Source: a virus
Reading direction: 5' to 3' (one strand)
IMG/VR virus record: IMGVR_UViG_3300013117_000371
DNA: 64,000 nucleotides
Shown here: one piece after another, positions 8,871 through 64,000 of the stretch
Numbering within the stretch: position 1 is the stretch's first letter
How the letters are laid out: each line of letters starts with the position of its first letter
The notes under the pieces: generated by a model
What the model was told of the DNA's origin: nothing
The model's input: the letters and a program-made list of their open reading frames with translations, nothing else
Databases searched by the model: none
Program-made: the position numbers and the translations under genes

Positions 8871-11800
8871 TTACGGGAAGTCTACATCTTCTTCATGGTA
8901 CCAGTCTGCGTAGGACGTCGTCAGGGGGATCGGGAGGGAGAACCGCTGAGAGACTTCGATAGCTTCGTACTCGGCGTGGTGGAGCCACACAATCATATCC
9001 GGTGAGACCACCCCGCAGTACGACTCCAGCCAGATCTTGAGGCGGGTGCTCCCCAGGAGGGCTGGGACGGCAGCGCTCACGACCCCCACTGCGGGTATGA
9101 CGCCGTTGGGGTCAAACACTACAACAGCGCTATTACCCGCTCCTGGGTAGGTGGCTTTGGCTTCCCCCAAAATGGGGAACGTTCCTAATTTTCTGTCCCC
9201 TGTGCCGATTTCGTCGTACCACACGTACAGGAAGTCTCCCTTCGGGATCTGTGATCGGCGCAGAGAAAGAAGTGGATAGGTCCCACCAAGGGGGACGTTA
9301 CCCCACACGGCGAAAGGATTGGCAATGACCCCCAAGGAAGTAAGGGTCGGATCAAAGGCCAAGTTGAACACGACGACCCTCGCTCCCTCGTAGTTGTTCC
9401 AAAAGGCGTCTATATGGTCCCCTACTGCACGAATAGTAGTGGAGGGGAACCACACAGGGTACGAAGGACCAGCGTCACGGCCCAACCGGCTGTGGGGGAG
9501 GGTGAGGCCGGCCAGGCAATCCCGACCACCTGGGTTGTTGACGTCAGTCACCGCCCACGTTGCCTCAGCCGCAGTCAGGAGACTTCCCGAAGCTGCGTCG
9601 TACAAGTTGTACATCCAGGGCAACGCTGGGTCTTCCGGGTTCACCCCCGCCCAATCGTCCGGGTAGTGGCACACTAAAGTTTTTTCGGTCTTCAGGTCGT
9701 CATACCCTGACCGTTTCGTGAGCCCTCGGGCCACCCCGAACACGCCAATGTGCCGCATAGGGGAGGTCTCGACAAAGCCCTCCCGTTCAATGAATACTCG
9801 AAAAGTGGCTGAGGTCAGGTTCTCAGTGGGTGGGGGGACTACATTTACCGGGTCGTCTCTGGCGGAAAACTCCCACCACACGTTCTGCAATAAGGAACCC
9901 GGCACCGGGCGCTCGAAGGGCAAACGGATTACGCTTGTTCCCGTCGACGTATGAGTGTAAGACCACACTTCCTTTGTAGCCATCATGAAGAGGGCGGCCC
10001 CATCGGAAGTAGCGGGCTGCAAAGTGAACTGACCGAACCCATGCCCGGCAAAGTTGGGTTGATTGGCGAAGTACACCAGGGGTTTGACGTAAGACGTCCT
10101 GCGAGCACCGTCCGGCGCTGCTCGGTTGTCCTCCTCGTACGAACCTGGGAGGTTGGCTTTGAGGTCACCGGTAGTCCAAGGCCACACCAAAGTGTTCTCC
10201 GCCCCTGCCGCCAACAGGCCAAGCTCGATTGGGTGCGATCCCGCAATAGTGCCGTCCCAAAAGTCTGGGTGGCCGTACCCCACTACGGAAAAGCTGTCGC
10301 TGAAACCTACATCGGCATGGTGGACGTGGTTGGTATACAGCCTCAGGAAGAAGTCGCCCCGGTCTGTAGGCACGTAGGGGGAGCCTCCTGCCGAGAAGAG
10401 CCCCATGTACGCAGCGGGCCACAGGATTGCTTCTTCCATAGCCTTAGTCAGGTCGATGCTGCCGGCTGGGAAGTCCCGGGCGAAGTGCAAGTCCGTCACC
10501 CCGTCCATGACTTTGGCCCAGTCTCGGGTTACCGGGACGTAGACAACCCAACCATAGGCACCGAGCAGAGCTCCCAGCAAGTCGTAACCCCCCCGGATGT
10601 CCAAAGCTGCGTTGCCGTAGTAGTAGGAAGCGTGGGCATTGTTGTCCGGCGTAGTGAGCGAAGACAGAAAAGACAGGAAGTACCGGTGCGCTCCGTCCTG
10701 CCCCCGAAGGGGGGTGTCCAGCCAGTGCTCCGCCGCCATGTTGAAAATGAGGGGGGAGGAGATCGTCAAGTGGGGGACACCCGCAGCGTTTTCCTCCCAC
10801 TCGAACCAAGCCCCTGCGACAGTGTCGGTGATTGTCAGCATAGGTATGACAGCGCCGCCGGCGACGGGAGTGTGCAAAATATAGCCCAAACCGGCGCCGG
10901 CAGCCAACTCCATGTTCATCCAGTTGACCTGCCCCGAAAGGGCAGCGATGTGCACGGAGAAGTAGCGATCATCCGGAGGCGCTGAAGCGCTGTAGGTGTA
11001 CGCTGTGCTGATGTCCTTCCCGATCACTGACCAGTGGTACAAGGACCCCAGTTCCACTCCCAGCGACTCATACCCGGCGATAGGAACACCCTCGGTAAGG
11101 TCGGCTATGATGGTGCGGACTTGCCCAGAGGCCATCACATCGGCAGTGCGGATATACTCTCCTCCTCGCCGTAGCTGAGTAGCGTCCTGGACGTAGTTCC
11201 AATGGATGACATACATCTCATCGCCCGTCGCCTGCGCCCCAACGATGTTCTCAAAGTTGATCGTGATCGTCCCTGCAACTACAGCCACCGAAGTGACCAT
11301 GGAGTACATGTTCCGAGTGTTGTTGAAGAACATCCACTCCGTAGGGGTGGCCATCAAGCGAATCAGGTCGTCGTAGTCACCGCTTTGGGTGAACGACACC
11401 GACATTGGCCCTACGACGGTCACTCTCTGCAACGGGAAGCGAATCAAGGGGGACGGGATATTTTGGACTTCGCTGCGCTTGTGGTACCCCGTCATGGCCA
11501 GGTTGGGGATGAGCCCATCATTCATGATGGTGTGCGTCCACAGATAGCCTTTGGCCTCGTCCCCGGGGGTGAAAGACTCAGATAGGGTAGTACCGCGAGA
11601 GATCGTAATCGCCCCAGTTGCCGGGACGATGTTGTCGACGTGGTACGTTCCTATTTTGTCCACATCGGTGCATTGGGTAATGGTCAGTAGGACGCACCCA
11701 TTGTGCCGTTCGAACTCCCCTTCCCGGAAGACGGTGAGCTCCGGCGCAGTCAAGTTGGTAATGAGGAGCACCCCCCCACCTCCCGCCGTCATCTCCAGGG

Positions 11801-29307: not shown

Positions 29308-29481
29308 CTACTCCTCCGCTGTCTGCGCCTGGTCAATGAGGCCCTGCACTTCATCGTACTTATCCTCCCGGGCCAAAATGTGGTCAAGGGCGTCCTTCTC
29401 CGCCCGGACCCGTTCGAGCTCCAGCTCGGCCCACTCTTTCACCGCTGTAGCTACCGCTTTGGCCTCCTCAAGGCTTGGCAT
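29308..29481 (-). CDS. 57-aa acidic coiled-coil protein (below the ORF-track cutoff)
   Basis: MPSLEEAKAVATAVKEWAELELERVRAEKDALDHILAREDKYDEVQGLIDQAQTAEE*; AGGAGG upstream; abuts the next gene. Confidence 0.65.
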   Translation of the reverse strand: MPSLEEAKAVATAVKEWAELELERVRAEKDALDHILAREDKYDEVQGLIDQAQTAEE

Positions 29482-30421
29482 GTGCCTCTACCCTCCTGCG
29501 CAGCTTCTGCCGGTACCGGGAGACCTGGGAAGACGAAATCCCCAACCGCTGCGCTATGGCCGTGTTCTTGGCGTTTGGGTTTTTGTCCAGAAAGCGGTAC
29601 ACTGCCAGTTCGGTCCCTGTCAATTCCGGGGGCAGGAGGGACCAAACCTCCTTGACTCGGCTAGCCCGAGTCCCGTGTGGTACCTCTTCCTTGGTCTGCA
29701 TATGGACAGGCTTCACCTCCTTTTGGAGGAGGACCACATCCGTCTCCTTCACACGAGCTTGGCTGGCTATTTCTGCCGTTGTCGGCGCCCGCCCCAACCG
29801 ATTCTCAAGCACCCGCTCGGCTCTCCGAACTTTGCCTACTTGCTGGAGGCGTTGCTCCGGGACCCGCACCGGGGTAGCTCGCCGCAGCAGGGGGCGATGC
29901 GCTCCCTTGAGGGAGCCAACCACGAAAGTGGAAGCCCGCACTCCCCGACTGGGGTCGTACTTACGCAACGCTTTCAGTCCTGCCTTCATGAACTCGGCCT
30001 GGGGGATAACGGGCCCCCCTCTACTGGCGAAGTCCTGCGCCCTGCCGGCGACGACCTTACGCAGCTCGGCAATTACCGGGGGGAGGTAGCGCTTGTTGTG
30101 CTTCTTCTGTTGCCAGTTTGTGGTAGCCACAGTCAAAGGGTCCAAGGCCGCCGCCACCTTCTCCAAGGAGTCCTGAAAGCCAATCAGGACCGGGTCCACT
30201 AATTGGCCGCGTTCGCCGTCCCCGGCGATGACGAAGAGGGGTGTTTCCTGGTGCAGTGCCTGGAACCTGGCCAACTTCTGGAGTTCCTCACCCGCAACTG
30301 CGCAAGGAACTTCCCCCACTACTCTACCGTACCGGGTGTGCGCTACCATCAGGGTGGGGGAATCGCTCTCCTCGTCCCGTACACGGACTATGAACACTTG
30401 GCGCTTCTTCCTAACTCCCAT
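29468..30421 (-). CDS. phage sigma-70-family factor (regions 2-4) with ~90-aa N-terminal extension
   Basis: KYDPSRGVRASTF (2.3), PVRVP...LENRLGRAPTTAEIA (3.0), AIAQRLGISSSQVSR (4.2 HTH, SigF/SigB-like). Confidence 0.85.
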   Translation of the reverse strand: MGVRKKRQVFIVRVRDEESDSPTLMVAHTRYGRVVGEVPCAVAGEELQKLARFQALHQETPLFVIAGDGERGQLVDPVLIGFQDSLEKVAAALDPLTVATTNWQQKKHNKRYLPPVIAELRKVVAGRAQDFASRGGPVIPQAEFMKAGLKALRKYDPSRGVRASTFVVGSLKGAHRPLLRRATPVRVPEQRLQQVGKVRRAERVLENRLGRAPTTAEIASQARVKETDVVLLQKEVKPVHMQTKEEVPHGTRASRVKEVWSLLPPELTGTELAVYRFLDKNPNAKNTAIAQRLGISSSQVSRYRQKLRRRVEAHAKP

Positions 30422-52144: not shown

Positions 52145-52327
52145 TTACTTCCCCAACAATGGGAGCTTGGCCCCTTCTTTCAGGCGCTTCCGCACCAGGA
52201 TCTTGAGCCGTCGCAGGCCCAAACTCCTGTACTTAAGGTGTAGAAGAGCAACCGGAAGCGCCACTGCCACTCCTGCCGCCCCCGCCAGTTGCCCACGAGT
52301 AAAAGGCGCCCTTTTCCTCTCCTTCAT
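52145..52327 (-). CDS. small basic protein with a hydrophobic glycine/alanine segment
   Basis: GQLAGAAGVAVALPVALL flanked by K/R. Confidence 0.55.
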   Translation of the reverse strand: MKERKRAPFTRGQLAGAAGVAVALPVALLHLKYRSLGLRRLKILVRKRLKEGAKLPLLGK

Positions 52328-53094
52328 GATACTCGCTCCACCATCAACTTTGCCGGTTTCTCCAACAGGCCGAGGTCCGCCGGGAGTTGGTGCAAGATGT
52401 TGTCCGCTGGCACCGGAGACGCCGTAATAGCGTGTTTCACCAACGCCCCCTCGAACCGGAGCATCTCCACCCCCGCCACAATGAACCTGTCATTCGTGGA
52501 ATCAACGAAGACGTCCCCCTTACGCAGGGGAAAAATACCAGGGAGCATTGCCCGCAGACTTCGCCCGGTAGCCCTGGAGGTCTCTGGGCCTTCGTCCTGC
52601 TTGGGGGTGTGCTTGATGGGTAGCACTATCGGGTTGAAGAAACCCCCAACGAAGCCCTTGCCGAAACAAGCGAGGCACTTCGTATTCTTCCTGCCCCGAG
52701 TGGCGTCATAACAGGAGCACCGCTGACCAAATGTCTTCACCGGGTAGTACAAGACGAACGCCTTCCCATAGTAGAGGTCCATATAGAGGAGCCGCCGCAC
52801 TTCGGCAATCGCCAACGTCTCTTCCGGAGCAATCGACACTCCTCCCGAAGTTGGGTAGTACGTGTCGGTCCCGTCAACCACCTCACGGAGCCGGTAGTAG
52901 TAGCGGGCCCCTCTCTTAATCGCAGTGTCCTGGTAGTTGTTGCGGTCCGTGAGGGGGCCGGCCAGTTCTGTGAAGGGCCCCGTGTACGACCCGGCCCGTT
53001 CCACGTACACCTCTATCGGCCGGTGGGAGCTCTGCAAGCCTTCCCACTGGAGGGTAACCATTGCCGGTCCTGTCCGTACCACCTTGATGCCCAC
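52324..53094 (-). CDS. head closure / neck protein with FN3-like N-terminus
   Basis: LQWE...YYYRL (FN3-like); CSCYD...CLACFG.GFVGGF; GDVFVD...RF.V head-closure-type motif. Confidence 0.65.
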   Translation of the reverse strand: MGIKVVRTGPAMVTLQWEGLQSSHRPIEVYVERAGSYTGPFTELAGPLTDRNNYQDTAIKRGARYYYRLREVVDGTDTYYPTSGGVSIAPEETLAIAEVRRLLYMDLYYGKAFVLYYPVKTFGQRCSCYDATRGRKNTKCLACFGKGFVGGFFNPIVLPIKHTPKQDEGPETSRATGRSLRAMLPGIFPLRKGDVFVDSTNDRFIVAGVEMLRFEGALVKHAITASPVPADNILHQLPADLGLLEKPAKLMVERVS

Positions 53095-53554: not shown

Positions 53555-53857
53555 TTACCCCTCCTCGGGAACCTTCTTTTTCGCCGGGGGCTTTTTTCTC
53601 TTTCGGGGTTTGCTTTGTCTGGAGGGGGCTTTCTTTCCAGGCTCTTCCGCTTCGGGGAGGGGGGTCGATTTTTTCCGTGCAGGCGCTTCAACAACTTCAG
53701 CAGCCGGAGGGTGCGGTTGCAGCTTCTTGGTGGTGTACCGGGCAGCTTCGCCCCTGGTTGTCCAAAAGGACCCACCAGGGGGGATCATCCCCCCCTTCAC
53801 CATGAGAGGAAAATTGCCATGGTTCCACAACTGGATAGGTTCGTCCCGCTTAGCCAT
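53555..53857 (-). CDS. small head-associated protein with basic tail
   Basis: 100 aa; K/P-rich C-terminus. Confidence 0.65.
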   Translation of the reverse strand: MAKRDEPIQLWNHGNFPLMVKGGMIPPGGSFWTTRGEAARYTTKKLQPHPPAAEVVEAPARKKSTPLPEAEEPGKKAPSRQSKPRKRKKPPAKKKVPEEG

Positions 53858-54689
53858 CTTTCTGCATCAGCCTCCTACCAAACTTGACTAGTTCGTTGCG
53901 CCGCATCGCCTCCAAATCCTCCCGCTCATAACCGCATTGGTCAAGCCAGTCGACCAAGTCGGCCTTGTTCATCCGATGCGGCGGCTTGGGCGGAGCGACG
54001 ATAGGGGTCTCCTCATCCGCCTGCTCCTCGGAGGATTCCACCCACGCCTCGTTCACATCAGGCGTTTCCGGGTCGTCTCCTGCGTATCTCCCCTCCTCGT
54101 CCCGAGCTCGCTTTCCCTTCTTCCCCTTTTTGCCCTTGCCTGGTTCAGATTCAGGTTTGGGCTCAGGCTTGGCCTCAGGCTTGGCCTCAGGCTTGGGCTC
54201 AGGCTTGGGCTCAGGCTTGGCCTCAGGCTTGGCCTCAGGTTTGGGCTCAGGTTTGGGCTTGGGTTTGGGCTTGGGTTTGGGAGGGGTAGGCGCCACCGGC
54301 TCTGGCACGGGGGCAGGAACCGACTCCGACTTCGCCGGTGGAGGTGAGTCTTCTGGAGGTTCCTTGGCGGGGACCTCCTCCAGTTCGAGTTTTGGGGCTG
54401 CCCCCCGACTCAACGTGGGCACCAAACTCGACACTTCCCGCACCAAATGGAGTAACTGCCGGGGCTGTGCCTCCTCCCCTTTGTACTCAACGCGGATGGC
54501 GTCAGCCCGAATCAACGTGTTGATGATTGTGACGTTGTCCGCTATGAAGATCGACGTAACGGAGACACCTCGTGTGGGAATCAGAATACCCCCGACCCGT
54601 GGGCGCAAGGGGCTGCCGGGAAGGGTAAGCAAGCGCTTCCACTTACCCTTCCCAGGCTTTGGGTTTCCGGTTTTGAATAGACGAAACAT
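53850..54689 (-). CDS. head-associated protein with PK/EAKP repeats, RARDEEG..GDDPETPDVNEAW motif and C-terminal HeH/Rho-N-like domain
   Basis: Gene right after the MCP; C-terminal MNKADLVDWLDQCG.....MRRNELV. Confidence 0.7.
   Translation of the reverse strand: MFRLFKTGNPKPGKGKWKRLLTLPGSPLRPRVGGILIPTRGVSVTSIFIADNVTIINTLIRADAIRVEYKGEEAQPRQLLHLVREVSSLVPTLSRGAAPKLELEEVPAKEPPEDSPPPAKSESVPAPVPEPVAPTPPKPKPKPKPKPEPKPEAKPEAKPEPKPEPKPEAKPEAKPEPKPESEPGKGKKGKKGKRARDEEGRYAGDDPETPDVNEAWVESSEEQADEETPIVAPPKPPHRMNKADLVDWLDQCGYEREDLEAMRRNELVKFGRRLMQKDG
54151..54281. repeat. 12-bp coding tandem repeat with 48-bp higher-order unit
   Basis: ctcaggcttgg[g/c] units encoding (PK)n then (EPKP EAKP EAKP EPKP)x2. 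Confidence 0.9.
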
Positions 54690-54703: not shown

Positions 54704-55861
54704 CTATGAGGCGGTGAACCTCGGCAGCCAGTCTCCGGTGTCGACTCGGTTGTTCCGGATGACATCGTCCTCAACCTTTGGGCGGACCACGGCGAAGCCG
54801 GTGTCCTCGTAGGTCGGGGTACTCGAAGCAGAGTAGCACTCCATCTTCTTCAACCCAGCCAGATTGCCGAAGCCGAGCCCGATGTACATCCAGGCAAACA
54901 TCTCGACCCGGGTGCCTCTCTTGTCCTGGTAGGTCTTGACGCCTTCCAGTTGGAAGTAACGACCCAGGTGCGACCACGGCGAGAAGCCGTAGACGTTGCC
55001 CAGACGGAGCCAGCGGTGCTTGCCCGTACGAACCACCCGCATGTCCTTGAACTTGCGGTAGCCCTTGGTGGTCTCCACCGTGTTCTTGACCGTGACATCC
55101 CCCACTTCCTCAATCGTCCAGTCGCTGGCACGATTGAAGTCGTGGTTGGTCATGAGCACAATGGCCCCAACCAACTGCTCCCCCTCATTCGTGTTGAACG
55201 AGTTCTGGAAGTCGGTGAAGTCGGTCTTCCGCAAGGGCGTCACTTCCCAGGTGTCAGCAACTGCGCCTGCTGCGTCCACCACCTCCTTCGCTGCGGCACT
55301 CTTGTAGACTGAGTACTCGGTCACGGTGCCGTCGTCGATGTTGGTGTTGTTCAGACCGTTGGCGGCGTTCCCCGCCGTGTAGTCCTTGAACAGGAACCAC
55401 ACCGCCGTCTCGATGTTGATCACGAAGGAGCGGTCTTTGGCGTCCGCCAACGCATCGCCCAGGTCCCTTTTCAGGTGCTTGGTGATGGGTCGCCGGGACA
55501 TCCGGATCTCGTCCGTGTCGTACACCGCAGTTGCCGTCTGAATCTTCTGGATCGTGATGGCATACTTCGGCTGCCGCACGGCCTCATTCCGAGTGCTGCC
55601 GGTGAAGTCCACCGGCATGCCCCACTGGCCATCCGTGATCTCGTCGATGATGATCGGCGAGGTGGTATTGACGGACCTTTCACAGTCCTCGTTGGTGATC
55701 GGCTCCGGCTCCTTGACAGCGTCCAGGAATGAACCTTCCCGAATGTGGTCTTCGATGTACTGCCTGTTCAGCGCAGCCACCTTGGCAAGACCCTCCCCTG
55801 GTTCGTCGAAGGAGTCGGCCCAGCGCTCATTCATCTCACGAATTTCGTGATCTCTCAGCAT
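54704..55861 (-). CDS. major capsid protein (HK97 fold probable, 385 aa)
   Basis: IREGSF...KEPEPI, P..F.G, I.K.QT....D.DE, L..A.D..F pattern; position after scaffold/decoration genes and before neck genes. Confidence 0.75.
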   Translation of the reverse strand: MLRDHEIREMNERWADSFDEPGEGLAKVAALNRQYIEDHIREGSFLDAVKEPEPITNEDCERSVNTTSPIIIDEITDGQWGMPVDFTGSTRNEAVRQPKYAITIQKIQTATAVYDTDEIRMSRRPITKHLKRDLGDALADAKDRSFVINIETAVWFLFKDYTAGNAANGLNNTNIDDGTVTEYSVYKSAAAKEVVDAAGAVADTWEVTPLRKTDFTDFQNSFNTNEGEQLVGAIVLMTNHDFNRASDWTIEEVGDVTVKNTVETTKGYRKFKDMRVVRTGKHRWLRLGNVYGFSPWSHLGRYFQLEGVKTYQDKRGTRVEMFAWMYIGLGFGNLAGLKKMECYSASSTPTYEDTGFAVVRPKVEDDVIRNNRVDTGDWLPRFTAS

Positions 55862-55870
55862 GGTCCCCTC

Positions 55871-56431
55871 CTATGTCAACTGGACACGGACAAAGCCGTT
55901 GTTGTTGGCGGCGTTCTTGATGAGTGTGCCTATGGCAAGGCCGCTTGTACCACCGTCACCCGTGGCGTCGGTGGACAGTACTGCACGGGCGTTTCCATCC
56001 CCGTCCAGCATGCTCACTACGTACACGGCTACTCCAACGGTTGCCCACGTTGCCACGGCATCCGGGTCGTAGATCTTCGAGTCGACCTCGACCGGCTCAT
56101 GGCCCTTGTACACCGGAAGGTACCCTTCCTGTGTCGTGGAGCTGGAATCTTCCACCTCCCGGGTCATCGCCTGTCGGGGCGGCTCGGCAGTCTTGCCCGT
56201 GACGAAGTACAGGGTCTTGGCGGCCAAGTCGACTGCCGCCGGAACGGCGCCGGCCCCCGGGACCTTGTACTTGTCGAGAGTTGCGTCGAGCTCCACCCAT
56301 TCACCATCCGAAATGTACGCCCAACTGTACGGCTCCACCGCCACGGTGTCGATGAACGCCGTGAGGTGATGGGCGGTCCGAACGATTACGTTCGGGAACT
56401 GGTTGCTCAGGGTGGGAAGTGTTACTGGCAT
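55871..56431 (-). CDS. head decoration / cement protein
   Basis: Beta-rich 186 aa immediately upstream of the MCP; GEWV.L. Confidence 0.55.
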   Translation of the reverse strand: MPVTLPTLSNQFPNVIVRTAHHLTAFIDTVAVEPYSWAYISDGEWVELDATLDKYKVPGAGAVPAAVDLAAKTLYFVTGKTAEPPRQAMTREVEDSSSTTQEGYLPVYKGHEPVEVDSKIYDPDAVATWATVGVAVYVVSMLDGDGNARAVLSTDATGDGGTSGLAIGTLIKNAANNNGFVRVQLT

Positions 56432-56442
56432 GATTTACCTCC

Positions 56443-56763
56443 CTATTGTAATGTTCTCAAGTTCTCAAGAAAGTCCACGTCACTCGTGGTCCGATCGGGC
56501 GAGCTTGCCTCCTCGCTGGCCTCACCCAGTGTGCTTCTCGGCGCCAACCTGTCAGCTAACTTCTCGATGGCCTCCCTCGGAAGTTCGGACAGGATGTCCT
56601 CGTCTGTTGACGAGGAATCAGAGAAGGTGGCTTTCACCCGAGCCACCGCTGCAGTCTTCTCCAGCTTGGTCCGGGCGGTCCGACCTTCTCGAATCTCAGC
56701 GGCTGCCGAACGGAGCAGCTCAGGGACCCCCTCCAGGGCGCCGGTCAATTCTGAAATCTTCAT
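56443..56763 (-). CDS. scaffold-like head protein with EKxA motifs
   Basis: LEKTAA, IEKLAD. Confidence 0.65.
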   Translation of the reverse strand: MKISELTGALEGVPELLRSAAAEIREGRTARTKLEKTAAVARVKATFSDSSSTDEDILSELPREAIEKLADRLAPRSTLGEASEEASSPDRTTSDVDFLENLRTLQ

Positions 56764-57173
56764 GACTGCCTCCTCCCCAGGTGAGCCCTGATCCGCTCCT
56801 TCAGCGCAGGGGTGATTCTGCGGGATGCCTGCTTCTCGAAGGGGCTGTCTTCCAACTGCGGAATCTCGCGCCCTTCCAGAAGCCGTTTTCCCTCAACCGA
56901 CAAGATGTCCTCCAGCTCAACGTCCGGACGAACAAAGGAAAGGGCGCCCACCACCCGTTCGACTGCCGAAGCAACCTTCTCCAGGTGCTCAGGGTCAAGG
57001 CCACTCTCGGACCCGCCCAAATCAGCCTCGATTCCCAGGGTGGAAAGAGCATCGTCTATGGTCGCGTTCTTTTCGATGCCTTCTTCCCTGTCCTCACGAG
57101 AGGCGCCAACTATGGCATCAGCCACCTCCACCGGGTTACGGTCGAGGAGCAATTCTGTCAGCGTCTTCCTCAT
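56760..57173 (-). CDS. scaffold-like head protein with three EKxA motifs
   Basis: IEKNAT, LEKVAS, FEKQAS. Confidence 0.65.
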   Translation of the reverse strand: MRKTLTELLLDRNPVEVADAIVGASREDREEGIEKNATIDDALSTLGIEADLGGSESGLDPEHLEKVASAVERVVGALSFVRPDVELEDILSVEGKRLLEGREIPQLEDSPFEKQASRRITPALKERIRAHLGRRQS

Positions 57174-57185
57174 GGGACTACCCTC

Positions 57186-57452
57186 CTATGCTGCCCGTTT
57201 CTTGCCGAGTCCGCGGCCGCCTACTGCGGCCGCTAGGAGCGCCCCCAGCCCGCCGACCTTGCGGCCGGCGCTGAGGTCTTTGAAGCCTACCTTGGCGCCC
57301 TTCTTCTTCGCCAGCGCCAGGAGGCCTTTGGCTCGCTTCGCTTTCAGGGTCTTCAGCCACCCCGCCTGCGCTTCGATGCCTTCGTCCTCTGCCTCAGCGA
57401 CTTTTTCCAGGCCGTCTTGGAAGCCTTGCTGGTACAGTTCTTCCAGGGTCAT
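57186..57452 (-). CDS. small head protein: acidic leader + polybasic glycine-zipper tail (88 aa)
   Basis: ATG 57452 with GGAGGAG; GFQDGLEKVA; VGGLGALLAAAVGG. Confidence 0.7.
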   Translation of the reverse strand: MTLEELYQQGFQDGLEKVAEAEDEGIEAQAGWLKTLKAKRAKGLLALAKKKGAKVGFKDLSAGRKVGGLGALLAAAVGGRGLGKKRAA

Positions 57453-57530
57453 CGGGGCTCCTCCTTCTCCGTGGACAGAGGGGGCCCTAAGGCCCCCATC
57501 CGTCACGTGAGTTTCTGCAACAGGCGCCTG

Positions 57531-58163
57531 CTACTTGCCGGCAGCGTAGCCGCCGGTGCCTGCCAACGCCGCCAGGAGGGCGCCGATGCCAATCTTGCCT
57601 TTGTGCTTCAGGCCGAGCTTCCCGGCCGCTCCGAGCTTGCTCTTGGCCTTGCCGAGCAGGGCGGAGGCCTTGCCTTTCAGCGCCTGCCGCCTCGCCATCC
57701 GGGCCTTGTACTTACCCAGCTTGCCCTTCTGCTTCTCACCGAAGAGCTGCGCCTTGAGGGCCTGAACCCGTGCGCTGGCGGCCTGCTTCTCCACGCCTTC
57801 GTCGGCCGCAGCACCCTCGTCGAGCGCTGCCTGGAAGCCCTTGCCATAGGCGTAGCCCATGCCAAACATCTCTTCCTGAGCCGCCTCCTTGTCAACGCCC
57901 TCTTCCGCCTCGCCCTCACCCAGGATTTCCATCAGGGCCTCGACCAGCTCCATGGCTTCCTCTTCCGGGATGCCGGCAGCGGCAAGGGCCTCGAGGGCTT
58001 CCTCGTCGTCCAGGTCGGCCAGGGACATATCGTCCTCACCCAGCACTTCCTGGACGCTTGCTACCTTCTCCAGGGTGCCTTCGAGCCCTGTTTCCTCGTC
58101 GGCCGCGGGCTCGGTGTCCGCCGCCTGAAGGGCCTCAATGATGTCCTTCTCTGTGATTTTCAT
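57531..58163 (-). CDS. scaffold/core head protein: acidic N-part, polybasic C-part (210 aa)
   Basis: ATG 58163 with AGGAGG; LEKVAS, VDKEAA, VEKQAA; IGIGALLAALAGTGG. Confidence 0.7.
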   Translation of the reverse strand: MKITEKDIIEALQAADTEPAADEETGLEGTLEKVASVQEVLGEDDMSLADLDDEEALEALAAAGIPEEEAMELVEALMEILGEGEAEEGVDKEAAQEEMFGMGYAYGKGFQAALDEGAAADEGVEKQAASARVQALKAQLFGEKQKGKLGKYKARMARRQALKGKASALLGKAKSKLGAAGKLGLKHKGKIGIGALLAALAGTGGYAAGK

Positions 58164-58240
58164 CTTCACTCCTCCTGACATGTTCTGTTGGTTTGACCAA
58201 GGTGGGTCTTAGCATCCGTAAATGCTCGCCTTACTCCTAA

Positions 58241-58269
58241 TGTATAACCTGCTGAGGAAGTCAGCGCAA
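58241..58269 (-). promoter_or_regulatory. possible sigma70-type promoter for the scaffold/capsid operon
   Basis: TTGCGC-17nt-TATACA, AT-rich UP-like tract upstream, GCTGA-5nt-TCAGC inverted repeat in the spacer. Confidence 0.45.
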
Positions 58270-58420
58270 GGAAAAACTTGCAAAAAAGTAAACGGGGGGA
58301 GAATTACTTAGCTCGCAGGCGCACTTTCTGGAACGCGGACGTCACCCACGGATGCGGGCGCCCGCGTACTCTTTTAAGGATCTTGGCAAACTCGCTCCCG
58401 GCCCAAATTCTCGTAGGCGC

Positions 58421-58741
58421 TTATTGCCCCATCTTTGGTTTTGCAGTCAACCCCATCCTTTCGGCTTTGGCCTTAGGGTTGAGCCCGGTTTGCTGCGTAG
58501 TTCCGCGACGAATATTGCTCAAGAGGCCCCCTGCCGGCTTCTGAACTCGTGGCCTGAGCACTTTCGGGCCGGCTCGAGTGCCTGCTATGATGGAAGGTAT
58601 TCGGGCGCCTCCGGCGCCCATCCGCTCTTTGCCCATAGCTACCGCCCGCAGCCCCGGAGTTTGAGCTACCATGCGGGCCATGCCCTCCTTATCCAACCCG
58701 TCTTCCAGGGCAGCCATGAAGCCGGCGACGAAAGGGTCCAC
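58421..58741 (-). CDS. small basic head protein with leader motif
   Basis: MDPFVAGFMAALEDGLDKEG then an R/K-rich body. Confidence 0.65.
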   Translation of the reverse strand: MDPFVAGFMAALEDGLDKEGMARMVAQTPGLRAVAMGKERMGAGGARIPSIIAGTRAGPKVLRPRVQKPAGGLLSNIRRGTTQQTGLNPKAKAERMGLTAKPKMGQ

Positions 58742-58742
58742 G

Positions 58743-60461
58743 TTACTCCCCCTCTTCCCGCAATTCCGGGTCGTTGGCCAGGCTGTGGAGCAAGGCGTAA
58801 GGCAGGGCCGTCGGCCGCAGGTCAGGCATAGGTGGGGGATTGATGACTGTCACTCGGGGGCCTTTGCTTCGTGCCCCCGCCAATGCCGCCAAGAGCGCCA
58901 ACTGCTCAGCGTTCGCTTCCTGGTTCTTGCTCGCTGTTCGAGCCATAAGCCACAGGGGGATGGTGAGACTGGGAGCAATCAGCAAAGTCGTCAAACCAGC
59001 TTGCTTCTCGATCCCCAACACTTCCCGGTCGCTGGCCAGGGCGTAGGGGGAGTCCCCCATCAAAGGAACAGCTACATCGGGCGCGGTCATGATCATGCCC
59101 AGGTAGTTCCGGTAGGCCCCCTCCAATTCAGCGTTCTTCTCAATCCCCCACTCCTCCAGCTCCGTTCGGGTATTGGAGAGAGTCTCCTCCGCCAGCGCCA
59201 AGCGGTCCAACAGACGTCGGAGGCGGGCACGTAGAATCTTGGGAAGGATAGAACGGTGCGGCGCCAGTTTGCGCTGCACGTGCCTGTCCGCAGAAACCCC
59301 CGGCTTGTCGGTACCGTCAACTTCTACAGGAGTGACCCCGTCAGGAAACGGAATCATGACTTGCTTCTTGATTATCAGGAGTCCTTGCTTCCTCTTCCCC
59401 TGCGCTCCAAGGAAAGCCGCTGTAAACTCCCGAGGGTCAAGCAGAACCTTGTTGCGTATGAGGGAGAGGATCAGCCCTGGGCCATGCTTGTCCCCCGCTG
59501 CCAGCAAAGCGCCGGGGTCGATGCTGGCTTCCTTGCTGAACATCTCCGCCATCTTCCTGATGAGGAAGCGCTTCTCCAACTGCGCCGGAGACGAACTGCG
59601 AAGGGCCGGAACTTTCCCAGCTTTGGCAATGGCGCCCTTGCGCACCAGTTCCCGCAACGCCGCCGTCACCCGAGCTTTGGGGATGCGGGAAGCAGGTACT
59701 CCCGAAGACATAGAGCCGTCTTTGGCCGCCACCTTCAGCAGCCCATGCGCTAAGGTGTCCGCCCCCTCGTCCACTGCCGAGATGTCATGGAACTTGGGGT
59801 AGAGATTGACCATGCAGGCCACTCGGCCGTTGGGCATGATGGTGCCAATGAACCGCCTATTGATGTGCAAACACGCCGGGTCCTCGTGGTGGCGCCGAGT
59901 ATTCCCACAAATCGGGCAGACGTCAGCAACAGCGTACATCCCCATGGACACGTCGAAGGGATGACCGCTGTCAATCCAATTCAAGATGTCCGGGTGGTCC
60001 TTGGCCAGCGGCTCTCGGAAGACTTTGACCAGCAGCTCAATCCAGTGCATCCCCCAGTTGTAGTTGGTGAAAATGACGTCGCCGTAGACCGGATGCCCCT
60101 TTTGCGGCTTGTTCTTGTGGTGGGCAAAAAACTTCCCATTGAGGAACGTACGGTACCCATAGGGGCGCTTAGCATATACTTTACAGGTCTGCCAGTTGGT
60201 CGGAGCCAGATGCTCCTCCAGGACAGCGTCGCCCCGGGAGTTGGGGCCCCAGTACTCGAATGCTCCAATGGGAATGATCACCATGTACGAGTAGGCAGGG
60301 TGCGGTTTGATCAACTTGATCTGGCTCTGTAACGCCGCCGAGAAATGAGACTTAGCTCCAGCTGGGAGGGCTGCCGCCGTCTTTTCCAAACCGGTCAGGG
60401 TGAACACTCGCTGGTGGTGGTGATCGTCAAAGGCGGGGACGTCGAGTGCTTTGTGGAGCAT
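58743..60461 (-). CDS. prohead maturation serine protease (HK97/assemblin-like fold probable) with C-terminal extension
   Basis: His (AHHKN), Ser in DVSMG, CxxC...CxH, FHDISAV..GAD resembling the EVS.V..PA motif of prohead proteases. Confidence 0.7.
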   Translation of the reverse strand: MLHKALDVPAFDDHHHQRVFTLTGLEKTAAALPAGAKSHFSAALQSQIKLIKPHPAYSYMVIIPIGAFEYWGPNSRGDAVLEEHLAPTNWQTCKVYAKRPYGYRTFLNGKFFAHHKNKPQKGHPVYGDVIFTNYNWGMHWIELLVKVFREPLAKDHPDILNWIDSGHPFDVSMGMYAVADVCPICGNTRRHHEDPACLHINRRFIGTIMPNGRVACMVNLYPKFHDISAVDEGADTLAHGLLKVAAKDGSMSSGVPASRIPKARVTAALRELVRKGAIAKAGKVPALRSSSPAQLEKRFLIRKMAEMFSKEASIDPGALLAAGDKHGPGLILSLIRNKVLLDPREFTAAFLGAQGKRKQGLLIIKKQVMIPFPDGVTPVEVDGTDKPGVSADRHVQRKLAPHRSILPKILRARLRRLLDRLALAEETLSNTRTELEEWGIEKNAELEGAYRNYLGMIMTAPDVAVPLMGDSPYALASDREVLGIEKQAGLTTLLIAPSLTIPLWLMARTASKNQEANAEQLALLAALAGARSKGPRVTVINPPPMPDLRPTALPYALLHSLANDPELREEGE

Positions 60462-60464
60462 TTG

Positions 60465-60926
60465 TCAGACCTCCCCCATCATCTTCTGATGGAGAGTCGC
60501 CGCCTTCATGGGGTCAAACACTCCTTTGTCCGCTGGCTGCGCCAACGCCAGGACTACGGAGGGATCAATTCCCTCCTGCTCAAAGGCCATCCCCTTGTTC
60601 ATGTACCCAGCTGCCGCCAGCGGGTCCCGGGAAAGGGTTGGGTTCATCCGACGCAAGGACATGAAGTGCTTGTATGCCCGTACTTGCTTCCTCCGCAAGC
60701 TGGGGGACTCACCAAGTGCTCTCTGGAAATCCCCGTCCCGAGTAAGGCGCTCATGCGCAGCCACCCCACCGGCTATCGCAGCCGCCGCAGCCAAGGACGT
60801 ACCCAGAAGGACCCCAGTGGGGCCGGCCGCACTAGCGATTCGAGCGAGGGTCTTCCTCTTTTTCGGGGTGCGCCGCCACGCCTTGCTGGCCTTGGCGAGT
60901 AGCTTGCCTATCCTTCCTCCTGGCAT
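60465..60926 (-). CDS. basic head-module protein with hydrophobic G/A segment (153 aa)
   Basis: ATG 60926 with GGAGGAG; GVLLGTSLAAAAAIAGGVAA; F.SL...NP.LS.DP.AA. Confidence 0.7.
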   Translation of the reverse strand: MPGGRIGKLLAKASKAWRRTPKKRKTLARIASAAGPTGVLLGTSLAAAAAIAGGVAAHERLTRDGDFQRALGESPSLRRKQVRAYKHFMSLRRMNPTLSRDPLAAAGYMNKGMAFEQEGIDPSVVLALAQPADKGVFDPMKAATLHQKMMGEV

Positions 60927-60937
60927 GTTGGCTCCTC

Positions 60938-61423
60938 CTAATAGTTGGCGGGCACGTACGACGGGCGCTGGCCCCTGCTGGCCATGTAGGCGCCCCCTGC
61001 GACCAATGCGCCGCCTGCGCCTACTGCCGGCCACAGCCACTTACGCGCTGGTGCGGCTGGTTGCTCCTTGGCGGCCCGCTGGAAAAGCCCAGCAAAGCGA
61101 CCCTGGCCACTCTGAATGCGCTTCATCCGGGCAGCGTGTCGAGCTTCTCTGATTTCTGCTTTGCGGGCGTACTTGCCGGTGACTGCCTCTACTCGAGCTG
61201 TGCCCTTGGCGGCCACTTCCTTCCTCCGCATTGCCCTTTTTGTTCTGGCCATAGTTGCCTTCCCCCGAACCTTCGCTGCTACTACTTTTTTACGGGCGGC
61301 CGCCCCTGCTGCTCGGCGAGCTGCCCAGGCACTACGAAAGCCCTTCATGAAGGCGTCCTTCTCAAGGCCGTCTTCGCTGCGGTCTGCTATGAACTGTGCA
61401 AGTACTGCTTTGTCAATGGCCAT
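60938..61423 (-). CDS. polybasic head-module protein with leader motif (161 aa)
   Basis: TGATG coupling at 61423; EDGLEKDA; R/K/A-rich; WLWPAVGAGGALVAGG. Confidence 0.7.
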   Translation of the reverse strand: MAIDKAVLAQFIADRSEDGLEKDAFMKGFRSAWAARRAAGAAARKKVVAAKVRGKATMARTKRAMRRKEVAAKGTARVEAVTGKYARKAEIREARHAARMKRIQSGQGRFAGLFQRAAKEQPAAPARKWLWPAVGAGGALVAGGAYMASRGQRPSYVPANY

Positions 61424-61764
61424 CACGTCCCCCAAATTTGCATGGCTTTCCGGCTGGCGGCCATGTTCGCCCGCATCCCAGTGATAAATTCATGGGCAAA
61501 GAGCCCCGCAATACCCAACCGCATCGCTCTCCCCGCGGTTGCCCCTATCCCACCCCGTAACGCCTTTCGTACGGCCGACTGCGCCGGGCGAGTAGCGATT
61601 GTGTACGGGTTGACCGGGGAGGAAGTTACCTTGCGCAGATACCCCGCTACCCGGTCATACCGAGTCTGTGGTTTGAAAAGGCGCACCACAGCGACCTTCT
61701 CCAGCTCCTTCCGGCGTTGGTATTCCGCAACCGCAGCCGCAAGCAATGGCCCTACTTGACCCAT
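61423..61764 (-). CDS. basic head-module protein with leader motif
   Basis: ELEKVA at residues 20-25; GGIGATAG..LGIAGL. Confidence 0.65.
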   Translation of the reverse strand: MGQVGPLLAAAVAEYQRRKELEKVAVVRLFKPQTRYDRVAGYLRKVTSSPVNPYTIATRPAQSAVRKALRGGIGATAGRAMRLGIAGLFAHEFITGMRANMAASRKAMQIWGT

Positions 61765-62492
61765 GCCCCCTCCAACTTGGCGGAGGCGTCGGTATACGCA
61801 GCCACAGCCGTCAAAAATGATGTCATCGACGCCACCACCGGGTGCTCTGCTGACGGGGTCATTCCAGTATACTGGGCCACCTTGTCGAAGTCTATGTCGG
61901 CTGTCTTCTCCAAGGCCCCCTGCATAACTCGGGTAAGGACGGTGGACCCGTGCCCCCGGTCCAAGACTACCGCCAGCCCCATGAGTTCCTCAGGAGGCAA
62001 CTTCCGCAGCGCTGCGTTGACCGTTCCGGTCAGATCCCCCAAGCTCTCACTGAGAACCTCGGCGGCTGCCGTCTTCTTCAAATGGCGGTGCCCTGGGAGC
62101 TTGTCCCGCAGAGGGATTTTCGGCTTCCTCTTGGCCTTTTTCGCCTTGGAGGTGTGCGACACCGGCCCTACTCGGCGCAACTCCGGGAGGGTGAGGGGTG
62201 GGCCCTTCGCTTCCTTCCTCGCCCTCCCCCCCAGCCGTACCTTGGCCAAGGAGGCCAATTTGAAGCGGACCAAGCGATGCTTCTTGAACGCGTTCTTGTG
62301 GACTGCCCGATTGACCATTTGACAAAGGGTGCGGACGTGAGTATCCGTCAAAGCTTTCCCCTTGTGTATTCGCGCGAACCGGGCAACATTTTCCGCAACC
62401 AACGTTGACAGGTCCTTCTTCCCTTCATTGTGGAAAAACGCCTTGACTATGGTGATTGCCATTTCGGTGAGAAGTTCAGGATACACTTCCAT
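61752..62492 (-). CDS. head-module protein with three KxA motifs
   Basis: LKKTAA, LEKTAD, FDKVAQ; GGAGG RBS. Confidence 0.7.
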   Translation of the reverse strand: MEVYPELLTEMAITIVKAFFHNEGKKDLSTLVAENVARFARIHKGKALTDTHVRTLCQMVNRAVHKNAFKKHRLVRFKLASLAKVRLGGRARKEAKGPPLTLPELRRVGPVSHTSKAKKAKRKPKIPLRDKLPGHRHLKKTAAAEVLSESLGDLTGTVNAALRKLPPEELMGLAVVLDRGHGSTVLTRVMQGALEKTADIDFDKVAQYTGMTPSAEHPVVASMTSFLTAVAAYTDASAKLEGAWVK

Positions 62493-62567: not shown

Positions 62568-63341
62568 CTACTTCTTAGAATCCCGCAACACCCGCTCCGT
62601 CACGGCTCCCAAAATCCCAGCTCCAAAAGCCCCGGCAACCCCCCGGCCGACCACTCTCGGCAGCCACAACTTGGGACGGCGCAGGACTTTTCTGTACGTG
62701 CGCAACTTCAGAGGTGATCCTTTGGCCTTGAAGAACACCGTTTCCGGTACTTGCTTAGCCGCCGCAGTCAACCCCCCTACCCCCGCTACCAGGGGAATAA
62801 TCGAGCCTCCCTTTTTTTTCTTGCGTTTCAGGCCGTAGCCAATGCTCCCCGCTGTCACAGCTGCCGCCGCCAATCCCGGTACCGCCCTGGCAGCAAACGC
62901 CCGGCCAAACACCTTACGCATCCCCGCAGCGGTCAATTTCTTCCCCGACTGGGCCCGCTCAAGGGCGTACTCCACGCCCCCTTTGCCTCCCGAGTAGACA
63001 ATGCCGCTGGCCAGGATCTTGGTCATCCCCCGAGCTCTTCGGCCGGGGTCGCCGGACTTCAAGTCTTTCACGCCGCTAACGAATATCGGAAAAGTCGCTG
63101 CCCCTACCGCTACTCCGCCAGCCGCCCGGGGAAGTCCTCGCCTGCGGAAGGAGGCAAGGAGCCGCTTCATTCGGAAGGCTTCCCGCACCCGTTTCCGCTG
63201 CATGCGGCGGAGGACCCCTCCCTCTACAGCGTGCTCAATAGTTCCCTTGGGGAGGTCGGCCATGACAGCTTTGAGGCCCCCCGCACCGATGAGGGCAGCC
63301 ATGGACTTGCTTTGCCTGTCCTTCACCGAGCTGACCTCCAA
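62568..63341 (-). CDS. polybasic protein with four glycine-zipper-like hydrophobic segments
   Basis: GGVAVGAATF, GLAAAAVTAGSIGYG, LVAGVGGLTAAA, GVAGAFGAGILGAV; start uncertain. Confidence 0.65.
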   Translation of the reverse strand: MEVSSVKDRQSKSMAALIGAGGLKAVMADLPKGTIEHAVEGGVLRRMQRKRVREAFRMKRLLASFRRRGLPRAAGGVAVGAATFPIFVSGVKDLKSGDPGRRARGMTKILASGIVYSGGKGGVEYALERAQSGKKLTAAGMRKVFGRAFAARAVPGLAAAAVTAGSIGYGLKRKKKKGGSIIPLVAGVGGLTAAAKQVPETVFFKAKGSPLKLRTYRKVLRRPKLWLPRVVGRGVAGAFGAGILGAVTERVLRDSKK

Positions 63342-63429: not shown

Positions 63430-64000
63430 TTATGTCAACTGGAAAGATGCCGCCGGGAACATGTCGCTGCGCGGATACACCAAATGCGACGCCAGGAGAC
63501 AGTTGAACATAGCATGGAAGTAGTCATCCGTCTCATTCTCACTGTGAATGTACCGCACCTTTCCCTTTCTGTCCACTTCCGCCTTCACCGCCTTCAAGTC
63601 CTGGTACCAATGGTGCGCCCGCAAATCCGCCATCCGGGGGAGCTTGAAACGGGAGGGGGTCATCTTCATCGCCGTCACCACATTGGTGAGCATCTCGTCT
63701 CGGCTGACCTTCACAATGAGGTCGTGGGGGGCAAACTTGATAGGGGCGTTCTGGTTGACATACTGGACCTGCACGAACCGCTCCGCCCCGAATATGCTGA
63801 CAAGCATCCGGTTACGCACGTACCCCATTCCAGCGTCCGCTCCCAGCTTGGCGATGCGCACTTGCCGCAGCAACGGCAGGAAGGGAAGGTAGGCGTCCAC
63901 TTCAGTCCCCACCCGGTACTCCTCCAGGTCCGGGAGCCCTAACTCGAAGTAACGGAAGCCCCCTACGAACGTAAAGATGTCTTTGATGTACGCCCCGAAC
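63430..64000 (-). CDS. terL: terminase large subunit, C-terminal nuclease domain (5'-truncated by window edge)
   Basis: Frame is open to the window end; ADAGMG, RDEML, YIH...TDDYFHA.FNC. Confidence 0.75.
   Translation of the reverse strand, partial: FGAYIKDIFTFVGGFRYFELGLPDLEEYRVGTEVDAYLPFLPLLRQVRIAKLGADAGMGYVRNRMLVSIFGAERFVQVQYVNQNAPIKFAPHDLIVKVSRDEMLTNVVTAMKMTPSRFKLPRMADLRAHHWYQDLKAVKAEVDRKGKVRYIHSENETDDYFHAMFNCLLASHLVYPRSDMFPAASFQLT

Follow-up and report, generated by a model that had tools for sequence, protein, structure and literature searches.

The 64,000-nucleotide stretch of IMG/VR virus record IMGVR_UViG_3300013117_000371 analysed here (the window) probably carries the head-assembly module of a large uncultured phage, and the proteins encoded at positions 54704–62492 share a short signal, hydrophobic-x-Lys-x-Ala, that also marks the head-side proteins of its relatives. 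We consider it likely (probability about 0.7) that a 572-residue protein encoded in this span belongs to a family of phage head-maturation proteases that cut the motif-bearing head proteins at this signal. A maturation system in the style of phage T4, written in a different code, is the best explanation of the data, from which we infer both an active protease and the cutting. The window is part of one 145,296-bp viral contig, estimated to be 79% complete, and agrees with contig positions 12380–76379 with 1 mismatch in 64000 bases. Genes and start codons are heuristic calls, amounting to 165 open reading frames (ORFs) and 41782 residues over the contig. The span 54704–62492, in which every gene lies on the minus strand, holds 11 called ORFs and 2338 of these residues (5.6%); counts per ORF use 12, adding the ORF at 60465–61040.

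The pattern [LIVF]EKxA occurs 19 times in the genome, and 14 of these occurrences, the number also reached by eye in the initial annotation of this DNA, lie within the span. Counts were compared with shuffles in which residues were permuted inside each protein, retaining composition but not helical periodicity. Across the whole genome, the comparison that the initial annotation had proposed finds the span enriched (14 vs 0.39 expected; 0 of 2000 shuffles reach 14) and the remainder not (5 vs 3.06 expected, 385 of 2000 shuffles, not significant). The extended form G[LIVF][ED]Kx[AG] is present 9 times against 0.11 expected, LEKxA ranks first among all four-residue patterns of the span in an unbiased scan (8 vs 0.17 expected), and 14 of the 15 [LIVF]EK triplets there continue as x-A. 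Chance is rejected as the source of the motif by the shuffles, and cherry-picking by the unbiased scans, which place LEKxA first in the window and KxA first in the relatives. Bare KxA is in modest excess, with 38 occurrences in the 12 ORFs against 25.6 expected (14 of 2000 shuffles reach 38), so that the roughly 20 K-x-A sites of the initial annotation were too few, its counts being otherwise broadly correct. Eight of the 12 ORFs carry [LIVF]EKxA, the capsid protein carries LAKVA at residues 25–29 and the protein at 58421–58741 carries LDKEG at residues 16–20, leaving two (55871–56431 and 60465–61040) without the motif; the initial annotation had given 10 of 13 ORFs plus a DKEG variant. Its labels 61423 and 61764 are the two ends of one ORF (61423–61764, with KELEKVA), EDGLEKDA belonging to 60938–61435. 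It had found only one [LIVF]EKxA outside the head module, but the window has two outside the span, LEKVA at residue 86 of 29468–30421 and LEKPA at residue 244 of 52324–53094. The latter (residues 244–248) sits 9 residues from the C-terminus of a 256-residue minus-strand protein downstream of the capsid gene and, having Pro at x, may not be a genuine site.

The signal is selective in its residues and in its direction. Within the span [LIVF]ERxA is absent, despite 186 Arg against 178 Lys, as are [LIVF]EKxL, LEKxL, LEKxE, LKExA and LEExA, and the reversed pattern occurs once. Over the 19 sites Leu is written as CTG, TTG or CTT, Ile with two codons, Ala as GCT, GCC, GCA or GCG and the x position with 14 kinds of codon, and no 9-mer is found more than 9 times in the genome. 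This Lys preference, direction bias and synonymous codon variation point to a directional, Lys-specific signal selected at the level of protein.

Comparison with relatives supports K-x-A as a signal under selection at the level of protein and linked to both the head module and the protease family. A search of IMG/VR with the single protease sequence found no relatives, and one with an eight-row alignment gave 205, of which the best 80 loci were kept. The pattern [LIVMF]xKx[AG] is enriched in all 80 (2971 in total vs 1148 expected), and the form with [ED] before Lys in 79, the exception being locus L041 (2 vs 2.3). Of 65 non-identical loci, 56 contain the protease gene together with the capsid gene; in these, enrichment reaches 3.15-fold in the 4 kb or less upstream of the protease, 3.04-fold in the protease itself and 3.54-fold between the protease and capsid genes, against 1.64-fold in the capsid protein and 1.47-fold downstream of its gene. 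In the head-side ORFs of the relatives, with the two closest loci excluded, KxA leads all two-residue patterns (1869 vs 848.5, z=35), and the high-ranking ones do not include the usual coiled-coil pairs; downstream of the capsid gene they do not include KxA either. The relatives hold 1089 copies of [LIVMF]xKxA against 142 of [LIVMF]xRxA and 221 of the reversed pattern, and their family logo reads [ED]-[EG]-[LM]-E-K-[TV]-A-[S]. Glu precedes Lys at 14 of the 19 sites here, but at only 9–47% of KxA sites in relatives, and the Glu of LEKxA thus appears to be a habit of this lineage, the core K-x-A being family-wide. The module's small proteins have homologs in only 1–3 loci, which means that the motif is kept while its surroundings turn over. 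As a positive control, the same scans applied to T4 gp67, gp68, gp21 and gp22 returned IxE and LxE as the two top patterns ([LI]xE 31 vs 12.9 expected; 0 of 2000 shuffles reach 31), and [Leu/Ile]-x-Glu is the known cleavage motif of the T4 protease gp21 (MEROPS S77; PMC5694885, in part). In our span neither [LI]xE (30 vs 23.7; 159 of 2000 shuffles reach 30) nor [AGS]xE (41 vs 46.5 expected) is enriched.

Two proteins keep the motif at fixed places throughout the family. The first is the 385-residue major capsid protein (54704–55861), whose assignment rests on a family profile, since the window protein by itself matches no PHROG or Pfam family: the profile, built from 31 capsid-family members, hits Gp27, the capsid protein of phage G (PDB 6wkk_A), at E=2.5e-19, and phrog_2522, ‘major head protein’, is matched by 22 of the 31. 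A tblastn search with the window capsid protein found no direct relatives among cultured phages. Its LAKVA (55775–55789) would end a predicted acidic leader of 29 residues with a net charge of -4, and K-x-[AG] stands at the equivalent leader end in 56 of 56 capsid-protein rows (47 of 47 located with an anchor pattern, and 9 of 9 that it missed read by eye), in each case 8–16 residues before a conserved Arg-Glu motif, the motif being kept while its flanks vary. The second is the 572-residue protein (58743–60461), aligned in 121 rows with members 28–65% identical to it. The conserved columns of this and of the eight-row alignment define a putative protease domain at residues 30–245 (59727–60374), immediately preceded by LEKTA at residues 25–29 (60375–60389) and closed by LLKVA at residues 241–245 (59727–59741). 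At the N-terminal site K27 and A29 are each kept in 110 of the 121 rows and position 25 is L, M, F, I or V in 106; at the domain end K243 and A245 are each kept in 114, position 241 is L, M, I or V in 117, and the residue after A245 is Ser in 73, giving the consensus [LM]-x-K-[VIL]-A-S. This conservation of K27/A29 and K243/A245 means that the motif brackets the conserved domain throughout the family. Two further sites lie in the C-terminal extension (58998–59144): IEKQA at 484–488, with E485 and K486 invariant in the eight-row alignment and followed by a hydrophobic stretch and a conserved tail, and IEKNA at 440–444, kept in only 2 of the 7 other rows.

Several links, weak or indirect, point to the 572-residue protein as a protease. 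It matches phrog_18299, ‘head maturation protease’, weakly (E=0.0042 over residues 62–202), a family also matched by 9 of 10 relatives scanned, down to 8.8e-17, and whose name is an annotation. An exhaustive HMMER search with residues 1–300 returned 1783 clusters (at 50% identity) at E<=1e-3, 996 of them at E<=1e-10, with matches ending at query residues ~240–300 and many near 246–251. RefSeq annotates more distant relatives in Erwinia, Dickeya and Gordonia phages as head or capsid maturation protease. Among the named ESM Atlas clusters, Peptidase_S77 (0.91) and S80/S77 (0.90) come nearest; these serve as leads only, the Atlas model being poor (predicted local distance difference test score 0.49). 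Seven residues are invariant in the 121 rows (N74, D78, H115, G127, S172, G212 and S228), at least 90% of the rows retain D226, C182, C185 and C197, and H199 is invariant in the eight-row alignment; His115, Ser172 and Asp226 are the candidate catalytic residues of what would be a serine protease. Its gene lies, as is usual for head-maturation proteases, between packaging genes (from 63430 on) and the capsid gene, and in 68 of the 78 loci holding the protease ORF the capsid gene is found 2–8 kb downstream on the same strand. Other proteases were sought without success. A search with Pfam Peptidase_S77 (PF03420) gave no match at E<=10 for this genome, for Arash, phage G or Stormageddon, or for two relatives of 91–100% completeness, and Peptidase_S80 (PF20034) has none in 5 of 5 records, in a weak search that likewise gave no hit in 14 control genomes. 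With the S77, S80, S78 and ClpP models taken together, this genome gave no match, and neither did a 100%-complete relative or Arash, so that the 572-residue family is left as the only protease candidate.

Between the candidate catalytic Ser172 and Asp226 lies a Cys-x-x-Cys...Cys-x-His cluster (residues 182–199; 59850–59920), and several relatives give weak zinc-ribbon Pfam hits below cut-off. The cluster is a candidate metal-binding insertion, of a kind we do not know from T4-type head proteases.

Homology extends to cultured phages. In tblastn the 572-residue protein finds gp222 of Salmonella phage Arash (OQ632216) at 34% identity, Vibrio phages D69, D148 and D181 at 31% and gp19 of Bacillus phage G at 31%. 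Arash gp220 to gp226 hold 10, 2, 7, 8, 3, 6 and 2 motif sites, respectively, an enrichment like that of the related loci, with a variable residue before Lys; they include LVKEA at residues 25–29 of the capsid protein gp226 and, in gp222, LTKQA at 28–32 (the first of 7) and LEKVA at 216. Virion proteins in Table 2 of the Arash paper (PMC10585845) include Gp220 to Gp224, Gp225/Gp225.1 and Gp226; as gp225 of the sequence record was not mapped to either Gp225 or Gp225.1, 6 of the 7 proteins are clearly listed. The table has 116 ‘structural’ proteins, ribonucleotide reductases and ligases among them, and its ‘coverage’ is not sequence coverage, since 100% is given with 2 unique peptides. The table was considered as a test of leader loss and rejected because these values are not credible. 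In a metagenomic locus, L066, the capsid protein (12869–13792) has displayed N-terminal residues identical to those of Arash gp226, indicating that Arash-like phages are present in metagenomes. Phage G gp19 (9704–10606 of locus L083) has motif sites at 41, 246 (LEKVA) and 272.

Several observations weigh against a protease that cuts at this signal. At the sequence level the protease assignment is weak and indirect, the window protein giving a PHROG E-value of 0.004; hmmscan of the protein and 9 relatives matched no Pfam protease family, and PDB searches gave no sequence match. An hhalign comparison with T4 gp21 places H115 on H85 and S172 on S140, which we take to be the gp21 catalytic residues, and is not significant (E=0.16, probability 0.4%); the link was equally insignificant with a single gp21 sequence (E=0.21), the value of 0.16 coming from a profile of 19 close homologs that is shallow because all are at least 66% identical to T4. 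Among the relatives, site preference shows no variation with lineage at position -1 (0.26 vs 0.26), and at -2 a weak one (0.65 vs 0.54, Mann-Whitney p=0.0008, with relatedness ignored). The phage G capsid protein gp27 (L083 16153–17001) has Arg-Val-Ala-Leu-Ala where relatives have x-x-Lys-x-Ala, so that the Lys is missing, and the protein may be a natural uncut case; PDB chain 6wkk_A comprises 280 of the 282 residues of this capsid gene. The K-x-A beside the protease domain and in the capsid N-arm could be structural and no cut site. In the accessible text of the Arash paper, finally, gp222 is annotated ‘structural protein’, and protease or cleavage is never mentioned (PMC10585845). The proposal of the initial annotation that K-x-A is this lineage's cleavage site is upheld in part: the 56 capsid rows, the 110 and 114 of 121 protease rows, the z of 35 and the T4 control support a selected signal, of which cutting is the likely reading.

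Of the known systems, that of T4 is closest in its overall plan. In both, the protease gene lies among small core or scaffold genes and adjoins the capsid gene, one short motif ends the leaders of capsid and basic internal proteins and punctuates acidic core proteins, this motif leaves the same statistical signature in the core proteins, and leader-bearing cargo genes also occur elsewhere in the genome (for T4, PMC5694885, in part). The T4 enzyme has a His-Ser-Asp triad (same source, in part), and the His and Ser of our candidate align at T4 spacing, in the alignment already described as not significant. The two systems differ in that T4 has Glu at P1 where Lys and Ala are conserved here, with [LI]xE not enriched, and in that our candidate is not matched by Peptidase_S77 and has the Cys/His insertion and a C-terminal extension of ~325 residues. 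The phiKZ gp175 and SPN3US gp245 enzymes (MEROPS S80) likewise serve large phages with propeptides on many head and ejection proteins, long propeptides there holding several sites and the protease removing its own C-terminal propeptide (PMC5694885, PMC10052503, both in part); as in that system, Arash, a relative of this phage, has RNA polymerase subunits in its virion (Table 2 of PMC10585845, in part). S80 sites are [Ala/Ser/Gly]-x-Glu, whereas [AGS]xE is not enriched here and Peptidase_S80 is unmatched; the available parts of PMC5694885 and PMC10052503 have the T4, phiKZ, 201phi2-1 and SPN3US enzymes all cutting after Glu. Herpesvirus assemblin (pUL26, MEROPS S21) offers a third likeness, in an N-terminal protease domain of ~225–245 residues with a scaffold-like extension, and in two self-cleavage sites, the first where the domain ends and the second close to the C-terminus, comparable with 241–245 and 484–488 of 572. 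The layout of domain, site, extension and site resembles an assemblin-scaffold fusion only by analogy. Assemblin has a Ser-His-His triad where only one His is invariant here, and PDB searches found no sequence similarity to it.

These comparisons bear on where the cut would fall. Assemblin cuts after Ala, often before Ser or Thr, as in the YLQA-T and VQA-S of pseudorabies virus (PMC4498786, in part). The i, i+2, i+4 spacing of the motif fits an extended substrate in both of two registers, with Ala at P1 and Ser at P1', or with Lys at P1 and the hydrophobic residue at P3. We lean slightly towards a cut after Ala, because a conserved Ser follows and specificity would then lie entirely on the non-prime side; Lys would in that case be P3 and the hydrophobic residue P5, unlike assemblin, whose P3 is hydrophobic. 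A cut after Lys, the register of L-x-E in T4, seems to us a serious if somewhat doubtful candidate, and a cut anywhere else improbable. The mature capsid N-terminus ALNRQYI predicted in the initial annotation assumes the cut after Ala29, and a cut after Lys27 would give a different one.

The proposed course of events is as follows. The G-[LIV]-E-K-x-A of this lineage would be a form of the family-wide hydrophobic-x-Lys-x-Ala(-Ser), recognised and cut inside the prohead. The protease, incorporated in the prohead, would free its own domain by cuts at 25–29 and 241–245 and trim some 29 residues from the capsid protein; acidic scaffold-like proteins would be chopped into pieces of ~20–60 residues able to leave the shell, and acidic leaders of 20–40 residues would be removed from very basic small proteins, which would stay with the DNA. 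Taking each site as a boundary, the module's proteins fall into three classes. Acidic multi-site proteins, with predicted pieces of 21–59 residues, comprise a 137-residue scaffold-like protein (56760–57173; IEKNA 33, LEKVA 64 and FEKQA 112, giving predicted pieces of 37, 31, 48 and 21 residues), a 106-residue protein (56443–56763; LEKTA 34 and IEKLA 66) and residues 1–134 of a 216-residue protein (57531–58181; LEKVA 37, VDKEA 96 and VEKQA 130), whose acidic pieces carry charges of -6, -21 and -5 and precede an 82-residue basic tail of +19, counted with the second class. That class has a leader ended by the motif and then a very basic body: a 113-residue protein (61423–61764; 25-residue leader ending LEKVA, body +13), a 165-residue protein (60938–61435; 28-residue acidic leader of -4 ending LEKDA, body +28), a 106-residue protein (58421–58741; 20-residue acidic leader of -4 ending LDKEG, body +15), which has homologs in the two closest loci only, and another 106-residue protein (57186–57506; leader ending LEKVA, body +10). 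The third class is formed by the capsid protein and the 572-residue protein.

Leaders ending at the motif, as in capsid targeting sequences of the T4 kind, are thus found on mutually unrelated proteins with bodies of up to +28. In 9 head-module proteins the first site ends at residues 20–41, and the leader, with a charge between -6 and +1, is negative in 7; upstream of the site the leaders have aromatic and acidic residues in common, as well as a Gly at -3. At 20–40 residues they are longer than the T4 capsid targeting sequence, carried by internal proteins IPI-III and Alt, which has about 10. The lengths of 19–29 residues initially assigned to them depend on the start codon, the leader of 57186–57506 being 37 residues from its GTG start and 19 from an internal ATG. 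Outside the module the genome encodes five more leader-bearing basic proteins, whose bodies carry +12 to +31. By analogy with T4, the leader may also load or target proteins into the prohead. In a stronger version, the 1783 clusters would form a very large and undescribed protease family for which hydrophobic-x-Lys-x-Ala(-Ser) is the code both for cutting, after Ala as in assemblins, and for loading cargo. A portable acidic leader of 20–40 residues would then suffice to load unrelated proteins, the cargo being DNA-condensing basic proteins and possibly a sigma factor and polymerase subunits; we think this less likely than not. The motif does not by itself predict the whole packaged proteome, as had been hoped of it, since a strict N-terminal match is found in 20 of the 165 proteins of the genome and several of these are probably due to chance.

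T4 and the phiKZ-like phages provide well-known examples of head-maturation proteases that recognise a short consensus, and of cargo leaders that are cleaved off. What would be new is a different code, Lys-x-Ala, on the head proteins of a family that metagenomes contain in abundance and that includes cultured phages (Arash and those like Vibrio D69), nearly all of whose proteins otherwise lack annotation. The kind of process is known, and the Lys-x-Ala signal itself was not found described: the open-access literature returned no ‘K-X-A’ motif together with prohead, nothing linking Arash to a capsid protease and, among the matches listed, nothing on a phage G protease. If correct, the code would allow the protease, the scaffold-like proteins and the internal basic proteins to be identified across hundreds of large phage genomes and the ends of mature proteins to be predicted for structural studies, and it would supply a candidate leader for carrying foreign proteins into these capsids. 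Were the broader cutting and cargo-loading code also true, sequence would reveal the injected proteome and the leader could serve to tag cargo, and a cut after Ala would narrow the gap between phage and herpesvirus protease specificity. The claim is directly testable, because Arash can be propagated on a laboratory Salmonella strain.

The alternative that survives best is that the motif is a docking or targeting peptide, bound uncut by the scaffold, the portal, the capsid protein or the 572-residue protein during prohead assembly. The evidence assembled here is all of the conservation and enrichment kind, and the shared upstream aromatic and acidic residues and the Gly at -3 (9 vs 0.11) would suit such a peptide. 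On the other hand, the motif repeats at spacings of 20–60 residues in acidic scaffold-like proteins and stands on both sides of the protease domain, a layout that belongs to the known cleavage sites of T4, SPN3US and herpesviruses (PMC5694885, PMC10052503 and PMC4498786, each in part), and the identical scan recovers the true cleavage motif of T4. We therefore think docking without cutting unlikely, and docking and cutting are in any case compatible. Less probable again is a different reader of the motif, either a host protease or an enzyme that modifies Lys, the 572-residue protein then being structural or scaffolding and having lost, or never possessed, protease activity. Such a reader would be in keeping with the weak sequence-level assignment, and the strict use of Lys over Arg would suit a Lys-directed modification; yet His115 and Ser172 are invariant in 121 rows at 28–65% identity, the motif flanks the protein's own domain, and it travels with the protein family across Salmonella, Vibrio and Bacillus hosts, which argues against a host enzyme.

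That the motif is a by-product of helical scaffold sequence rich in Glu, Lys, Ala and Leu, with no specific reader, is a very slim prospect. In its favour, the shuffles ignore helical periodicity, designed coiled coils in the PDB are weakly matched by the family profile, and the other proteins of the genome show a mild excess of [LIVFM]xKx[AG] (116 vs 87). Against it, Arg replaces Lys at none of the sites against 14 with Lys, the LEKxL, LEKxE, LKExA and LEExA variants are missing and the reversed pattern is seen once, coiled-coil pairs are absent from the top patterns where KxA reaches a z of 35, and the motif is kept at leader ends whose flanks vary; this explanation is largely refuted. A repeat selected at the DNA or RNA level, or spread by recent duplication of small genes that are adjacent and similar in size, is rejected with near certainty, given the varied codons for Leu, Ala and x, the rarity of any common 9-mer, carriers that include the unrelated capsid protein and protease, and the lack of strong paralogy among them (best pairwise blastp E=3e-6, in a basic tail).

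The module is transcribed from the gene for the terminase large subunit through those for proteins of 257, 246, 113, 165 and 191 residues to that for the 572-residue protein, and then through those for proteins of 106, 216, 106, 137, 106 and 186 residues to that for the capsid protein. The terminase large subunit (584 residues; 63430–64000, minus strand, continuing beyond the window) forms the upstream edge and matches phrog_675 at E=9.4e-41; against Pfam GpA_ATPase it reaches E=2.4e-5 and 24.5 bits, under the 25.6-bit cut-off, and none of the ten module proteins scanned has a Pfam family match. The 186-residue acidic protein (55871–56431), one of the two without the motif, is encoded just upstream of the capsid gene. 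The other, a 191-residue basic protein (60465–61040, net +25) with a homolog in 18 loci, probably starts later than called, because its longest start overlaps the upstream gene by 103 nucleotides. The 246-residue basic protein (61752–62492) has two sites near its C-terminus, LEKTA 194 and FDKVA 202, and none at its N-terminus, with a charge of +23 over residues 1–198 and +20 overall. Together with the 257-residue protein (62568–63341, minus strand, net +41) and that at 60465–61040 it is one of three very basic proteins lacking an N-terminal motif, which, if packaged with the DNA, would have to enter by another route.

The module is tightly packed except for a 240-nucleotide gap at 58182–58420, which has no coding-strand ORF of at least 50 residues; a scan of the module for promoters and terminators, including the minus strand of this gap, gave nothing exceeding shuffles. 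Just downstream of the capsid gene, a 279-residue protein (53850–54689, minus strand) contains a run of ~50 residues of Pro-Lys/Pro-Glu-Ala repeats (KPKPKPEPKPEAKPEA...) and has a homolog in 9 related loci. Upstream of the terminase and past the end of the window (genome 77671–88174), the contig encodes a protein whose end is QueC-like, a UDP-glucose dehydrogenase, methyltransferases, a radical SAM/SPASM protein and an asparagine synthase-like protein.

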